Part shown: positions 1-41,921 of the stretch, in pieces
Layout: the number at the start of each line of letters is the position of its first letter
Numbering within the stretch: position 1 is the first letter of the stretch
DNA from: Candidatus Limnocylindrales bacterium
GTDB lineage: Bacteria > Chloroflexota > Limnocylindria > Limnocylindrales > CSP1-4
Direction: 5' to 3'
NCBI GenBank assembly: GCA_036278755.1
Contig: DASUKL010000052.1
Location: forward strand, 22,697 to 86,696
DNA: 64,000 nt
Notes under the pieces: model-generated
Told to the model about the DNA's origin: nothing
Database searches by the model: none
What the model saw: the letters and a program-made list of their open reading frames with translations, nothing else
Translations under genes and position numbers: made by a program

Positions 1-228
1 CTTGATGAGCGCCAACTCCACGACGTTCATCCCGATCTCGGGATCCACGACCGAGCGGAGGGCGTCGAGGATGGCCAGTTCGGTGGCCCGGGCCTCGGCG
101 TCGAAGGCCGGCCCGGGGGCGGAAGCGGCGGGCTGGGCGGTCGGGGCCGTGGGCTCAGCGGTCGGGGCGGGCGTAGCCTGGGAGGCTGCGCTGACGGTCG
201 GGTCGGCGGTGGCTTGCTGGTCGGTCAT
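1..228 (-). CDS. Fe-S cluster assembly protein, DUF59/MIP18 (SufT-like) family; truncated by window edge (start at 228, 3' end outside window)
   Basis: Reverse translation from the ATG at 226-228 gives MTDQQATADPTV...ELAILDALRSVVDPEIGMNVVELALIK. This contains the DUF59 signature V.DPEIG.N.V.LGLI. A GAGGAA SD lies 6 nt upstream on the minus strand. The + strand ORF 2..289 is an Ala/Gly artefact. Confidence 0.7.
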   Translation of the reverse strand, partial: MTDQQATADPTVSAASQATPAPTAEPTAPTAQPAASAPGPAFDAEARATELAILDALRSVVDPEIGMNVVELALIK

Positions 229-285: not shown

Positions 286-624
286 CTAGGCGGGGGCGGC
301 CTCAGGCTCAGGCTGGACGACGATCCCGCTCAGCTGGCGGAGGAAGCTCGGCAGGCGGGCCGCCTCTGCGGCGGTGAAGGCGGGGCCGGGCAGGCTGCCG
401 TCGGCGGCGAAGCAGTCGGCGTAGCGGTCGCGATGCTCGACGGCGTAGCGGAAGGCCTCGGCGATGGTCATCCGCCGCAGCTCGGGATGCTCCATGACCA
501 TGCGGGACGGGGTCAGGCCGGCGGCCCGCATCTCGAGGATGTTGCGCACGCTGAGGCGGGTGTTGTAGCAGAACGGCTCGCCGTTCATGACTAGGGGGTC
601 CACCTTGACCCACTTGACCGTCAT
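286..624 (-). CDS. DUF433 domain protein
   Basis: Internal ATG at 622-624 gives MTVKWVKVDPLVMNGEPFCYNTRLSVRNILEMRAAGLTPSRMVMEHPELRRMTIAEAFRYAVEHRD. This matches the DUF433 pattern (G.P.I.GTRI.V..IL.....G.S...IL..YP.LT..DI..AL.YA). The ATG overlaps the TGA of the upstream gene (ATGA). Confidence 0.6.
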   Translation of the reverse strand: MTVKWVKVDPLVMNGEPFCYNTRLSVRNILEMRAAGLTPSRMVMEHPELRRMTIAEAFRYAVEHRDRYADCFAADGSLPGPAFTAAEAARLPSFLRQLSGIVVQPEPEAAPA

Positions 625-1127
625 CAGATCACCGAATCGTCGAGGATGCCGGCGCCCTTGAAGGCGAAGCGCACCACGGGGTTGCCGGGGTGGTCGCCGG
701 GCAACCGGCGGTGGAACTCGAGGACCTTGACCCATGCGTCGCAGGCCGCCTGGAGGGCGGGCAGGTCGGCCGGGGCGATGACGGCCGTGGCCGCCGCCTG
801 GAGGCCGCGCAGCAGGGTGGCCTGATCCTTGGCCTGGACGTTGCGCCGACGGTAGAGCGGGATGAGCCACTCGGCGTACTCGGTCACGAAGCGATCCTGG
901 CCGGTCTCGAGGGCCCGGGCGAGCTGCTCGATGTGCCGCTCGTAGTCACGCAGTAGGTGGCGCAGCTCCAGCTCCGTGTAGCGATCGCTGAGGGTCGGGT
1001 CCTGCCTGACGGCCGCTTCGAGGGCCACGGCGCCCAGCCGGGCGGCGGCTCCACGGATGCGGGCGGCGGCTTCCGGCCGGCCGGCCGTCGGATCAGCCGG
1101 CGGCAGGCCCTGGTTGGGATGGCTCAC
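624..1127 (-). CDS. hypothetical all-alpha protein, translationally coupled to the DUF433 gene
   Basis: 167-aa ORF with GTG start at 1127. Its stop overlaps the DUF433 ATG. Composition is protein-like (DRYTELELRHLLRDYERHIEQLARALETGQDRFVTEYAEWLIPLY...). I recognise no family. Confidence 0.45.
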   Translation of the reverse strand: MSHPNQGLPPADPTAGRPEAAARIRGAAARLGAVALEAAVRQDPTLSDRYTELELRHLLRDYERHIEQLARALETGQDRFVTEYAEWLIPLYRRRNVQAKDQATLLRGLQAAATAVIAPADLPALQAACDAWVKVLEFHRRLPGDHPGNPVVRFAFKGAGILDDSVI

Positions 1128-1169
1128 GAGCCAAGTCTAGCGGCCGGTCCCGCGGGCTACAGTGGAGCC

Positions 1170-1610
1170 ATGTCCGACCCTCAGCTGTCCGGCCGAGCGG
1201 CGTCCCGACCCCGGGCCATGGCCTTCGGCCTGGGGGCGGCGGCCCTCGGGGCGGCCGGCTGGTGGCTGACGGGCGGACTGTTCGCCCTGGCCGCCGGCCT
1301 CCTCGTGGTCAGCGTGGCCCTGGGCTGGCTCGTCGGGACGGGCGTTGCCTGGGGGGCCTGGGGCGAGCGGGCCCATGCCCCAGACCGAGGCCTGCGCGGG
1401 CTGGCCGTCGGGCTGGGCCTGCTGGCCTGGCTCGTCGGCTCCTTCGCCGTCTACGTCTTCGAGTTAGCCTTCCTGCCCCAGTCGCATCTGCCGCTACTGA
1501 CCAAGATGGCCCAGCTGCCCTTCCTCGACTTCACCCTCCAGCAGTTCATGCCGTATGGGCCCTTCGAGCTGATCCTCATCGCCCTCTTCGCCTGGCGCGC
1601 GGCGCGTTAG
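1170..1610 (+). CDS. hypothetical integral membrane protein (about 4 TM helices)
   Basis: ATG at 1170 preceded by GGAG. Product MSDPQLSGRAASRPRAMAFGLGAAALGAAGWWLTGGLFALAAGLLVVSVALGWLVG...FELILIALFAWRAAR has four hydrophobic segments. Confidence 0.45.
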   Translation: MSDPQLSGRAASRPRAMAFGLGAAALGAAGWWLTGGLFALAAGLLVVSVALGWLVGTGVAWGAWGERAHAPDRGLRGLAVGLGLLAWLVGSFAVYVFELAFLPQSHLPLLTKMAQLPFLDFTLQQFMPYGPFELILIALFAWRAAR

Positions 1611-2872
1611 CCGGGCAGATCGGCCCGCAGGAGGCTCGGCGTCGTGGTCGCTCCCAGGAGGCGGCGGAAGCGGGGCACGGCGAGGGTGCGCCCGTCGAGG
1701 CCAGACCAGGCCTGGACCAGCCTGGCCCCGCCGGCGTAGCCGAAGAGGGCCGTGCCGAAGGTGCCCGCCGTGCGGGTCCGGGCCCTGGCCCGCTCTGGGT
1801 CGAGGCAGATCTCGTCCACCAGCCAGCGGACGACCTCGTCCGGCGAAGCGCCCGCCTCGTGGATGCGCAGGGCCGCATCGGCGCCCGCGGCGATGCCTCG
1901 TTCCCGGAGGCACTGGACCTGCGCGGCCGTCTCCGCGTCGGTCCCCACGCCCGCCAACCCGGCAGCCCCGGCGATATGCCGGTAGGCATCGGCCAGGAGG
2001 TCGGGCGGGAGCAGCATCTGGGTGCCGGCCACGGCCAGGCCCTCGCTCAGGTATTCCTCGGGCGTGCCGATCAGCACGATCGTGGCCTCGACCCAGCCTC
2101 GGCCCTCCACCCGTTCCGTCTCGCGGGCGGCATAGTCGAGGTGATGCCCGGCGTAGGTCTCGTGGGCCAGCGTGTCGACCAGCTCGGGCAGCTGGCGGGG
2201 CAGGTCGGCCGAGATGTCGATGCGGGTCCGCAGCCCGCCCAGGAACTCGGCCGCGCCGGCCGAACGGGCACCGGTCACGACGTGGCTCTCGACCGTCTCG
2301 CCGTCCGGCAGGGCCGCCTCGCCGATGGCCCCGGCCACCGTGTCGCGGATCCAAGGCAGGGCAGCCTCCAGGGCTGCCCCGAGCCGCCCGGGGGCGACGA
2401 TCCAGCGGGCGTCCCACTCGGCCAGCCGCCGTCGGAGCGGCCCCCGGCCCGGCACCAGCTGCTCCAGCCCGTCGCGCATCTCGACCCAGGCCTCCTCGGG
2501 CGTATCGGCTGGCTCGTCGTCGAGCGCGGCGCGGATGCGCTGGCGATAGCCCAGTGGCGCACCGGCCGCGACCCGGGCTCGGGTCTCGAGGGCCATGAGC
2601 TGGCGTTCGAGCCAGGCCGCACGATCATGTTCGGCGACCTCCTGGGGGACGCGCGAACGTAGTTCGGCGGCATCGTCCGCCAGGCGCTCAGGTGACGGCA
2701 GGGGCTCGAGCTCGGCCCGGGCCTTCAGCTCGGCCGGCCCGAAGTAGGCGTCGATGAGCCCTGGGGCGTGCTGGTCCAGGCGGAGGGCCAGGAGCAGGTA
2801 GTCACGAGCGACGGCGTCCGGCTCCGGCACGCTGCGCTCACCCCCGACCGCCGGGACACGAGCCCTGGTCAT
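1607..2872 (-). CDS. DUF885-like protein (HE..GHH motif; putative metallo-hydrolase fold)
   Basis: 421-aa product from the ATG at 2870-2872, with a purine-rich gagggggagggggg tract upstream. The motif LAHETYAGHHLDY resembles the DUF885 HE.PGHH.Q signature. Composition is non-repetitive. Confidence 0.5.
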   Translation of the reverse strand: MTRARVPAVGGERSVPEPDAVARDYLLLALRLDQHAPGLIDAYFGPAELKARAELEPLPSPERLADDAAELRSRVPQEVAEHDRAAWLERQLMALETRARVAAGAPLGYRQRIRAALDDEPADTPEEAWVEMRDGLEQLVPGRGPLRRRLAEWDARWIVAPGRLGAALEAALPWIRDTVAGAIGEAALPDGETVESHVVTGARSAGAAEFLGGLRTRIDISADLPRQLPELVDTLAHETYAGHHLDYAARETERVEGRGWVEATIVLIGTPEEYLSEGLAVAGTQMLLPPDLLADAYRHIAGAAGLAGVGTDAETAAQVQCLRERGIAAGADAALRIHEAGASPDEVVRWLVDEICLDPERARARTRTAGTFGTALFGYAGGARLVQAWSGLDGRTLAVPRFRRLLGATTTPSLLRADLPG

Positions 2873-2888
2873 GGTTCCCCCCTCCCCC

Positions 2889-3215
2889 TCAGCGGTCCTC
2901 ACCCACGAAGGGCATGCCTTGCTCGGCGACGGCCTTGAGGCTCATCCGCAGCGCCGCCGTCTTCTGTTCGGCCACCTCGCGCACGTAGGCCGCCTCCTCG
3001 TCCGGCGTCATCGATCGGCCGCGGACACGCCCTTTGGGCCGACCGACGGACAACCACGCCAGATGGTAGCGGTCCATGGGACCCCATGCCGAGGCCAGGA
3101 GGTCGTCGCTGAGCTGCAGCCAGAGGCGCAAGGCGCCCAGGCTGGGGCTGGTCTGGAGGCGCTGGCCCTCGTCGATGAGCTGGTGCGTGTGGGCGATGAG
3201 CTCGTCGCGGGTCAT
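2889..3215 (-). CDS. hypothetical protein (108 aa)
   Basis: Clean ORF: MTRDELIAHTHQLIDEGQRLQTSPSLGALRLWLQLSDDLL...AEQGMPFVGEDR. It ends 16 nt upstream of the DUF885-like start, so probably the same operon. Confidence 0.4.
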   Translation of the reverse strand: MTRDELIAHTHQLIDEGQRLQTSPSLGALRLWLQLSDDLLASAWGPMDRYHLAWLSVGRPKGRVRGRSMTPDEEAAYVREVAEQKTAALRMSLKAVAEQGMPFVGEDR

Positions 3216-9491: not shown

Positions 9492-9556
9492 GGATGCATA
9501 GTCCTTATGCAGACTGGATACCCATGATACCGCGCGCCGTTTGCTAGACTCGTGGG

Positions 9557-18852: not shown

Positions 18853-19025
18853 CGAGCGTCTCCTCGGCAGCGACGAGCGACCGGCGGCCCGTCCTGAGGT
18901 GAGTCTACGCGGCGGCCGACCGGCGGAGTGGCGGCTTCAGCGGACGCGAGGGCACGGATCGGGGTCAGATGACACGGGGCTAGCGTGGGAGCCGACGCGC
19001 CGGGGCCGGGGCTAGACTGGCCCCG

Positions 19026-41860: not shown

Positions 41861-41921
41861 GCGGGCGGCTCGCTAGACTTGGCCCGGCCGCCGTGGAGCG
41901 GCCGCCTGGCGAGGAGGAAGC

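Follow-up and report, generated by a model that had tools for sequence, protein, structure and literature searches.

A stand-alone globin of the bilin-binding superfamily is paired with a DUF433 protein across Limnocylindria-type Chloroflexota: a candidate split sensor-regulator

Proteins of the DUF433 family (COG2442) are best known as the antitoxins of PIN toxins (PMC2701414, PMC3834315), and Makarova et al. (2009) described no conserved neighbours for them except PIN. The presence, in a Candidatus Limnocylindrales bacterium (Chloroflexota), of a DUF433 gene coupled to a gene of another kind raises the question of what such a protein does when its partner is not a PIN nuclease. An earlier note, made from the sequence of this DNA, had pointed to the pair, described the partner as an all-alpha protein of 167 residues to which no family could be assigned, and proposed a toxin-antitoxin (TA)-like module of a non-canonical type. 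We addressed this question in a stretch of 64,000 nucleotides (contig DASUKL010000052.1, positions 22,697 to 86,696), referred to throughout as the window, and in related genomes.

The window does contain two co-directional open reading frames of the minus strand, encoding proteins of 167 and 112 residues (Table 1), and the stop codon of the first does overlap the start codon of the second, both as the earlier note had reported. The junction, however, is not the four-nucleotide ATGA that had been read there: the coding strand carries CTGATGA, in which the two codons have a single nucleotide in common. This TGATG overlap, which is consistent with translational coupling of the two genes, recurs in 33 of the 80 loci described below and ATGA in 2, with an overlap or a gap of at most 5 nt in 54. 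Both genes have a GC3 of 0.90–0.95 in a genome of 72% GC, and the composition of the pair is native. The first gene has 304 homologues, almost every one of exactly 167 aa, and the two proteins are both highly conserved (54–85% and 57–74% identity).

Table 1. Features at the globin-DUF433 locus, in window coordinates
Feature	Position	Strand	Details
DUF59 (FeS_assembly_P) gene, 5' part	1..228	-	ATG 228-226; cut by the window edge; Pfam PF01883, E 3.8e-5
DUF433 gene	286..624	-	112 aa; Pfam PF04255; ATG 624-622, TAG stop 288-286
TGATG stop/start overlap of the globin and DUF433 genes	622..626	-	1 nt common to both
Globin gene	624..1127	-	167 aa; Cys-less; phycobiliprotein/photoglobin-like; GTG start 1127-1125, TGA stop 626-624
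GCTAGACT, with -10-like hexamer TAGACT	1134..1141	-	6 nt upstream of the globin GTG start
Gene for the 431-aa neighbour	1607-2902	-	HETYAGHH motif

Across 80 species genomes of the class Limnocylindria and its relatives, the DUF433 gene lies directly downstream of the partner gene, on the same strand, at 80 of 80 loci, with intergenic distances of -4 to +42 nt. The pairing is also kept in divergent subgroups and in searches begun from DUF433 homologues; it is present in essentially one copy per genome, and occupies the same syntenic block across the whole class. This region, which includes a 108-aa gene, a beta-lactamase-like gene, DUF59 and an adenosyltransferase gene, is syntenic class-wide, but the adjacency of the two genes is the only invariant one, every other neighbour being lost or separated in some lineages. 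Thus, the co-occurrence search of the partner family with DUF433 that the earlier note had suggested strongly supports its proposal of a conserved, tightly coupled module of DUF433 with a non-PIN partner. The searchable literature contains no description of this association. A 286-aa protein (P0005) that resembled a fusion of the two turned out to be merely an open reading frame over-called at its N-terminus. The sole in-frame fusion present in an assembly (L069) comes from a long-read MAG and owes its difference from related loci to a single inserted base; it may be a 1-nt long-read error, for which reason it was not used as evidence.

The 167-aa partner has no Pfam or NCBIfam match of its own, and a phmmer search of the PDB with the single sequence was uninformative, its matches being limited to a designed repeat protein and, weakly, hemoglobins. 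Its AF2 model is all-alpha, as had been claimed, with a globin core at approximately residues 15–140, and its fold is closest to the phycobiliproteins (score 16.1), followed by photocobilin (15.5), with the RsbR-type globins at 12.5 or less. Profile homology to the phycobiliproteins is also detectable: the globin profile A1 matches ApcD at E 1.2e-3, placing LLRDY on CLRDY and Y92 on the Tyr of KEMY, and the alignments begin at ApcD residue 34 and at position 33–34 of the Pfam Phycobilisome profile (PF00502). The latter is matched at E<=0.1 by 11 of 32 family members, the best at 29.1 bits, so that some lie above its gathering score of 22.2, whereas the globin of the window has no PF00502 match at E<=0.1 and lies below every Pfam threshold. 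Furthermore, hhalign comparison with stand-alone C-x-[RKE]-D globins gave 99.1% and E 5.8e-19, with D61 falling on their invariant Asp, and the distant profile matches carry B12-binding domains, the architecture of photoglobins and photocobilin. On fold and profile comparison, the protein belongs to the bilin-binding globin superfamily of phycobiliproteins, BBAGs and photoglobins, and the view that it has no assignable family is overturned.

CXRD is the bilin motif of phycobiliproteins and BBAGs, and biliverdin is a ligand of the Cys-less BBAG-2 and of photocobilin (PMC10151467, PMC10979010). The predicted bilin site of the present globin comprises L58, R60, D61, H65 and Y92; conservation is complete at R60 and D61 and at least 90% at H65 and Y92. 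D61 and Y92, which align with the Asp and Tyr of ApcD, correspond to the conserved Asp of the superfamily that forms hydrogen bonds to the pyrrole nitrogens and to its aromatic or hydrophobic residue on the opposite helix. The motif takes the form [FLI]LRD in 69 of 72 sequences, Phe, Leu or Ile replacing the covalent-attachment Cys of CXRD, and 56 of the 72 are devoid of any Cys. A similar ligand is to be expected, because the conservation of R60-D61 and Y92 would otherwise be hard to explain; by analogy with these relatives it is most likely a linear tetrapyrrole, such as biliverdin, bound non-covalently. The family also has an N-terminal motif of its own (MxHPxLGLPP) and a specific conserved C-terminal tail (HRRLPGDHxGN...KGAGxxDD, residues 139–167), which is invariant yet intrinsically unstructured.

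The 112-aa protein matches Pfam DUF433 (PF04255/COG2442) over profile positions 1–56 of 56, with 47.8 bits (E 1.3e-12) against a cut-off of 23.6 bits. The domain occupies residues 6–61 and has the three-helix-bundle/winged-helix fold of PDB 2ga1; it contains an invariant Cys19 and is followed by a conserved C-terminal extension of about 45 residues (62 to approximately 104) that is specific to this subfamily. In one member of the wider family, VapB10, binding to promoter DNA has been demonstrated, and is abolished by its PIN partner VapC10 (PMC3834315).

Upstream of the globin gene, the position of the element GCTAGACT is conserved in nearly all of the 44 loci inspected, out of 78 upstream regions extracted. 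There are four copies of it in the window against 0.47 expected, three of them 6–7 nt ahead of the starts of open reading frames. The element was also considered as an operator, but had the character of a -10 element common to leaderless genes in this organism; judged by its sequence and placement, it is likely to be the promoter of a leaderless globin-DUF433 transcript. No conserved inverted, operator-like repeat was seen in the upstream regions of the pair, and a search of the whole window against Rfam gave no match, and therefore no cobalamin riboswitch.

Since the partner is a phycobiliprotein-like globin that stands upstream of DUF433 in 80 of 80 species, the pair has the appearance of a ligand sensor and its DNA-binding partner. 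Our best reading, which we hold to be about evenly poised between right and wrong, is that a bilin-type globin sensor controls a DUF433 DNA-binding protein, the two forming a split one-component sensor-regulator and not a TA module. The two genes would form a vertically inherited operon, lineage-wide in Limnocylindria-type Chloroflexota, with a leaderless mRNA probably transcribed from the TAGACT -10 box and translation of the second gene coupled to that of the first. The first product would be a stand-alone non-heme globin that has kept the Arg-Asp and Tyr bilin holders and lost the attachment Cys, and would bind a biliverdin-like tetrapyrrole non-covalently, as does the globin domain of photocobilin. 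The second would be a winged-helix/three-helix-bundle protein with its subfamily-specific C-terminal extension. We infer that the globin would bind to DUF433 or not according to its ligand, light or redox state, with the invariant, intrinsically unstructured tail as a plausible point of contact, and that this contact would switch the binding of DUF433 to DNA at its target genes, in parallel to the effect of VapC10 on VapB10. A more specific version is tentative, and we think it more probably wrong than right: an undescribed bilin-based gene switch of non-phototrophic Chloroflexota, possibly responsive to red/far-red light or heme turnover, in which the tail of a Cys-less, B12-independent globin gates a dedicated DUF433 transcription factor. 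Several observations weigh against a bilin sensor. No photoglobin-like B12-binding domain adjoins the pair, either by tblastn with two photoglobin-type B12 modules against the window and 88 loci (827 kb in total) or in the Pfam-annotated contexts; in the five contexts read, the Pfam annotation of the genes includes no heme oxygenase (HO) or bilin reductase (FDBR). To these can be added the missing operator-like repeat and the position of the window globin under every Pfam threshold.

The neighbouring genes suggest a different explanation, namely that the pair is a cofactor-handling module, in which the globin carries or buffers a tetrapyrrole (a heme breakdown product, corrinoid or precursor), DUF433 serves as an adaptor, and the maturation or repair of cofactors is a task that both share with DUF59, an Fe-S assembly protein, and with the PduO-type ATP:cob(I)alamin adenosyltransferase; we judge this to be unlikely, though deserving of some weight. 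The adjoining DUF59 gene claimed by the earlier note is borne out by its Pfam match, but the DUF885 label that it gave to a second neighbour is unsupported, because neither Pfam (at E<=1) nor a sequence search of the PDB gave any match to this 431-aa protein. DUF59 lies downstream on the same strand at 65 of 74 loci and the adenosyltransferase (Cob_adeno_trans) at 61 of 69, usually in this order (at one locus, L082, both were assigned by Pfam), and in most lineages, divergent subgroups among them, all four genes run in one direction at short distances from each other. The relatives of the globin are, moreover, typically coupled to B12-binding domains (PMC8717448, and the profile matches above), the globin domain of photocobilin contacts the corrin ring (PMC10979010), and both proteins are conserved to a very high degree, as an enzyme or chaperone would be. 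Yet the link can be broken: in some 20 loci an additional ~1.1 kb separates DUF433 from DUF59 (a phosphofructokinase-like gene in the one inspected, L003), and 8–9 have neither DUF59 nor the adenosyltransferase nearby. DUF59 is hence a frequent but not obligatory neighbour, and the arrangement looks like core-genome synteny and not like an obligatory operon. Furthermore, no B12-binding domain is present near the pair, and no role of DUF433 other than in DNA binding is known.

A sensor-regulator of the same general design might instead contain a globin that does not bind bilin, and responds to some other small molecule, such as a fatty acid, in the manner of RsbR, or acts as a ligand-free scaffold for partner switching. 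Such an arrangement would accommodate the loss of the attachment Cys, the lack of a bilin-synthesis gene in the annotated contexts, and the invariant YRRR, RLPGDHxGN and KGAGxxDD motifs, which are without counterpart in bilin-binding globins. We consider it improbable all the same, given that phycobiliproteins and photocobilin outscore the RsbR-type globins in fold comparison and that the invariant or near-invariant Arg-Asp and Tyr align exactly with the CXRD...Y site.

The TA reading of the earlier note, extended to addiction or defence pairs, would make DUF433 the antitoxin and the helical protein a new type II toxin. It draws on the usual role of the family and on two small, overlapping genes, but we regard it as very improbable: the partner has a globin fold and not that of a nuclease or known toxin, DUF433 is encoded downstream, the reverse of vapBC10, neither protein matches a PADLOC family at E<=1, and both are under strong purifying conservation over the whole class. 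A typical mobile TA module is excluded by the linkage in all 80 species, the essentially single copy, the native GC and GC3 and the conserved syntenic position. That the two genes do not interact functionally, and merely lie side by side within a block of conserved housekeeping genes, is as implausible: synteny extends over the entire region throughout the class, but theirs is the sole invariant adjacency, with close spacing in most loci and persistence in divergent subgroups.

Stand-alone relatives of phycobiliproteins in heterotrophs, the BBAGs and photoglobins, were recognised only in 2021–2024, and their functions are described as unknown (PMC10151467, PMC8717448). In the present family such a globin has a single small partner, a protein of a DNA-binding type, to which it is fixed genetically across a whole class; with so minimal a pair, two small soluble proteins suffice for a direct test of what these globins do. 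DUF433/COG2442 is also taken beyond the one context in which it was known. If the more specific version, a bilin-based gene switch, is correct, it would provide the first defined output for stand-alone bilin-binding globins of heterotrophs, and a role for DUF433 outside TA systems; should the globin bind biliverdin and control DUF433, the two would constitute a compact switch in two parts, set by red/far-red light or heme status and of possible interest for optogenetics. Failing that, a useful correction still remains, in that a pair with the size and overlap of a TA module is a core, vertically inherited operon.

Among known systems, the photoglobins (Schneider et al. 2021; PMC8717448) and photocobilin (Zhang et al. 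2024; PMC10979010; PDB 8j2w) share with the present globin a non-heme globin fold near the phycobiliproteins, in which the third core helix bears a conserved Asp and the fourth a residue that is hydrophobic or aromatic. Photocobilin, too, lacks a Cys linkage, its biliverdin being held non-covalently, and photoglobins likewise occur in non-phototrophic bacteria, including Chloroflexi, with a predicted sensory role. However, stand-alone photoglobins are reported almost always to adjoin B12-binding domains (PMC8717448), whereas no B12-binding or B12-binding_2 domain is fused to or adjoins the present globin; its motif is xLRD and not CXQD, it has no distal Cys/Ser/Thr, it possesses its own N-terminus and tail, and its obligate partner is DUF433, of which the photoglobin paper makes no mention. 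With phycobiliproteins and BBAG-1/-3 (Rockwell et al. 2023; PMC10151467) it has the Arg-Asp of CXRD and the bilin-facing Tyr in register, and some of its relatives pass the PF00502 gathering score. It differs from phycobiliproteins in the replaced attachment Cys, in that those family members which match the Pfam profile do so over less than its full length, the N-terminal X-Y helical hairpin of alpha/beta assembly being missing, and in belonging to organisms without a phycobilisome; as for BBAGs, none of the genes associated with them (HO, FDBR, V4R, Fe-S cluster) was seen beside it in the annotated contexts. In the PIN-COG2442 systems of the VapBC10 type, too, a small DUF433 protein and a protein partner are encoded by two tightly coupled genes, and the partner may modulate the DNA binding of DUF433 as VapC10 does that of VapB10. 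Here, in contrast, the partner is a globin, the usual order with the antitoxin gene upstream is reversed, the pair is chromosomal, core and essentially single-copy instead of patchy and multi-copy, and DUF433 bears its conserved extension. Finally, the proposed logic would be that of the CarH/LitR-type one-component factors, in which a chromophore or ligand module controls an HTH DNA-binding module, but with sensor and output on separate polypeptides, a globin in place of the B12-binding Rossmann domain and DUF433 in place of MerR.

The 167-aa globin-like gene and the DUF433 gene that follows it constitute a two-gene module that is real and unusually strict. In the window the two ORFs are co-directional, with a host-like composition (GC 0.71-0.73, window GC 0.72; GC3 0.90-0.95). 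The 112-aa product covers the full Pfam DUF433 model with a score of 47.8 bits (cut-off 23.6; E 1.3e-12), which bears out the assignment made in the earlier note. On the coding strand the junction reads ...CTGATGA..., and since stop and start codons share position 624, it is a 1-nt overlap of the TGATG type and not the 4-nt ATGA overlap previously described.

The linkage was surveyed by scanning 185,579 species, each represented by a single genome, with two tail motifs, which returned 91 relatives, from which 80 loci were kept. A tblastn check with the window's DUF433 protein as query placed a DUF433 gene directly downstream of the globin gene, on the same strand, at all 80, so that the proposed two-gene module with DUF433 holds throughout. 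These downstream proteins are 57-74% identical to that of the window, over the full length where the contig allows. Between globin stop and DUF433 start lie -4 to +42 nt, with at most 5 nt in 54 of the 80 loci; the junction is TGATG in 33 and ATGA in two. There is one copy per genome, except for one MAG with two copies on separate contigs (L017, L024). A reverse search from two DUF433 homologues (P0388, P0315) always found a globin-family gene directly upstream (hmmsearch E 1e-46 to 1e-49), with DUF59 and then Cob_adeno_trans following the pair. The DUF433 subfamily is itself highly conserved, at 73% mean column identity; Cys19 is invariant, and some 45 residues past the Pfam domain form a conserved extension.

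Features of the pair and its surroundings (window positions unless a related locus is named)
Feature	Position	Strand	Remarks
DUF59/FeS_assembly_P gene	ATG at 228	-	runs off window; next gene downstream of pair (Pfam)
DUF433 gene	286-624	-	112 aa; ATG start 624-622; Pfam DUF433
Globin gene	624-1127	-	167 aa; GTG start; stop TGA 626-624
Divergent hydrophobic (membrane-type) protein	1170-1610	+	146 aa; 42-nt intergenic region shared with globin gene
431-aa ORF	1607-2902	-	HETYAGHH motif
108-aa ORF	2889-3215	-	no Pfam match
GCTAGACT	1134-1141	-	
GCTAGACT	9543-9550	+	
GCTAGACT	19011-19018	+	
GCTAGACT	41872-41879	+	
Divergent globin	L089 2503-2991		
Divergent globin	L092 2528-2992		
Divergent globin	L093 1599-2042		
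Globin-DUF433 fusion	L069 5001-5861		286 aa, in frame
381-aa gene	L003 5810-6955		between DUF433 and DUF59

The adjacency extends to divergent members. Around P0142 (160 aa) the order globin, DUF433, (60 aa), DUF59, Cob_adeno_trans is unchanged. A divergent subgroup of 147-162 aa (L089, L092, L093) lacks MxHPxLGLPP at its N-terminus, terminates in KGAGILD and has a Cys following directly on RD (FLRDC); DUF433, DUF59 and Cob_adeno_trans still come next. The sole fusion protein, at L069, arises from a one-base insertion right ahead of the normal stop, and may be either a natural fusion or a single-base long-read assembly indel. We consider it very probable that globin and DUF433 are an obligate functional pair.

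The 167-aa product itself has no match in Pfam or NCBIfam, and the earlier note could assign it to no family; profile and fold comparison now identify it as a phycobiliprotein-type globin. A collection of 5.8 billion proteins yielded 304 homologues, almost all exactly 167 aa long. They stem for the most part from MAGs that carry the labels Candidatus Limnocylindrales, Limnocylindria or Chloroflexota. An alignment of 32 of the family's sequences (A1) has a mean column identity of 70%, with invariant residues including R60, D61, Q68, E86, P90, R93, R95 and W132, and an invariant C-terminal block, RLPGDHxGN...R.F..KGAG..DD. The AF2 model has a helical globin core (residues 12-140, pLDDT >90), in keeping with the helical character already noted from sequence, and a conserved C-terminal tail (146-167) of low confidence. 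In fold comparison it scored 16.1 with far-red allophycocyanin (8or7_A), 15.5 with both ApcB and photocobilin (8j2w_B, a biliverdin-binding globin domain plus a B12 domain), 13.5-14.8 with phycoerythrin and ApcE, and at most 12.5 with RsbR-type and heme sensor globins. The sequence-based evidence agrees: the A1 profile matched allophycocyanin alpha-B (ApcD; E 1.2e-3), and 11 of the 32 members matched Pfam Phycobilisome at E<=0.1 (best 29.1 bits, gathering threshold 22.2). When 1.84 billion representatives were searched exhaustively with the profile, only 228 proteins reached E<=1e-3, the distant ones being stand-alone globins, about 130 aa long, which match PF00502, and globin-B12-binding fusions of the photoglobin/photocobilin architecture. 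Aligned by hhalign with A1, these stand-alone globins (A4) gave 99.1% probability and E 5.8e-19. The 167-aa protein is thus almost certainly a globin of the bilin-binding superfamily. One protein from the profile search, P0182 (164 aa), matches the Ni-hook region of nickel superoxide dismutase (PF09055, E 1e-13) at residues 11-61 and aligns over its remainder with globin-family positions 35-159; either the protein is an unusual hybrid or its assembly is chimeric.

The profile alignment places LLRDY exactly over CLRDY of ApcD, and Y92 over the Tyr of KEMY. CXRD is the chromophore motif of phycobiliproteins and bilin biosynthesis-associated globins (BBAGs), in which Cys forms the thioether while Arg and Asp hydrogen-bond the bilin (Rockwell et al., PMC10151467). 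The ligand triad of phycocyanin consists of Cys80, Asp83 and Tyr115; in heme globins the distal histidine stands where Cys80 does, and the proximal one where Tyr115 does (Schneider et al., PMC8717448). The counterpart here is L/F/I58, D61 and Y92: D61 and the preceding Arg are invariant, Y92 is at least 90% conserved, and no member has the Cys; 69 of 72 sequences read [FLI]LRD here, and 56 of the 72 proteins are entirely free of cysteine. With Arg-Asp and Tyr retained and the Cys gone, the protein is a non-heme globin in which the non-covalent part of a bilin pocket survives. There are precedents: the Cys-less globin of photocobilin binds biliverdin non-covalently, with Asp270 as key residue (PMC10979010), and BBAG-2 proteins lacking CXRD also bind biliverdin (PMC10151467). 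From this site conservation we infer bilin binding by the family, and put the chances that the ligand is a bilin at about even; that the globin senses some non-bilin ligand appears unlikely.

The pair is part of a syntenic block. The 108-aa ORF lies upstream in 72 of 80 loci (about 70% identity) and shares bases with the beginning of the 431-aa gene. As the latter matches nothing in Pfam at E<=1 and no sequence in PDB, its former DUF885 label was not reproduced; a 45%-identical homologue between the 108-aa and globin genes at L089 makes it a recurrent, not universal, neighbour. Homologues of the divergent 146-aa protein occupy the same position in about 40 loci, and in others a c-di-AMP receptor-like gene (PF06153) is found close by. 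Downstream, Pfam confirmed the DUF59 neighbour already reported; in 65 of the 74 loci whose flank is long enough, DUF59 follows the pair, and 61 of 69 have a PduO-type ATP:cob(I)alamin adenosyltransferase (PF01923, E 6e-45) downstream. In about 20 loci DUF433 and DUF59 are some 1.1 kb further apart, the added stretch being taken up at L003, the one locus inspected, by a gene that we take by eye to encode a phosphofructokinase; this linkage is therefore synteny and not a fixed operon. Both downstream genes are absent nearby in 8-9 loci; their links are not obligatory, and only the globin-DUF433 adjacency is invariant. A cofactor-handling role with DUF59 and the adenosyltransferase is suggested by the near-constant ties of the globin's relatives to B12-binding domains and by the adenosyltransferase producing the AdoCbl chromophore. 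No gene for a B12-binding domain occurs in the window or any of 88 loci, and we judge this role rather improbable. Heme oxygenase and bilin reductase families were absent from five Pfam-annotated contexts, and Rfam gave no match on the window.

The octamer GCTAGACT lies 6-12 nt before the globin start codon in nearly all of the 44 upstream regions listed, of 78 extracted. The window has four copies against 0.47 expected, three of them 6-7 nt upstream of ORF starts; given this excess and placement, we read it as a likely strong -10 element (TAGACT) from which this organism makes leaderless transcripts, and the pair is accordingly predicted to have its own promoter. TACAGT stands at an equivalent distance, 7 nt, before the ATG of the divergent gene. 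No conserved operator-like repeat was seen upstream of the globin gene.

The best-supported mechanism, which we rate at roughly even chances overall, is a split sensor-regulator. In it, the state of a globin that binds a ligand, probably a bilin, would be relayed to the DUF433 winged-helix protein; candidates for the interface are the globin's invariant, intrinsically unstructured tail and the subfamily-specific DUF433 extension. The DUF433 half of this model is backed by the classification of its fold as a DNA/RNA-binding three-helix bundle (PMC2701414) and by the DUF433 protein VapB10, which binds its own promoter specifically until bound VapC10 abolishes binding (PMC3834315). We put at somewhat less than even the chances that DUF433 serves as a DNA-binding output under the globin's control. 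That the genes are merely neighbours, with no functional interaction, is very improbable. Equally so is the TA-like module proposed in the earlier note, which fails at every testable point: 1) the partner has a globin fold; 2) the gene order is opposite to that of the PIN-COG2442 pair vapBC10; 3) the pair is essentially single-copy, of native composition and syntenic across a class; 4) purifying conservation is strong in each of the two proteins; and defence or TA models gave no match. We are confident that the pair is not a TA module.

The fold family (phycobiliproteins, BBAGs, photoglobins and photocobilins) and DUF433 are already known. DUF433 is absent from the photoglobin paper (PMC8717448), Makarova et al. 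found COG2442 without conserved neighbours except PIN, and in the literature searched no paper joins DUF433/COG2442 to globin or phycobili terms. What is new is: 1) a distinct, narrowly distributed globin subfamily, which, in contrast to CXRD/CXQD globins, has xLRD and no Cys, and possesses its own N-terminal motif and invariant C-terminal tail; 2) its B12-independent context, whereas stand-alone photoglobins almost always adjoin B12-binding domains (PMC8717448); and 3) the obligate pairing of a globin with DUF433, which brings the function of stand-alone bilin-binding globins in heterotrophs within reach of a two-protein experiment.
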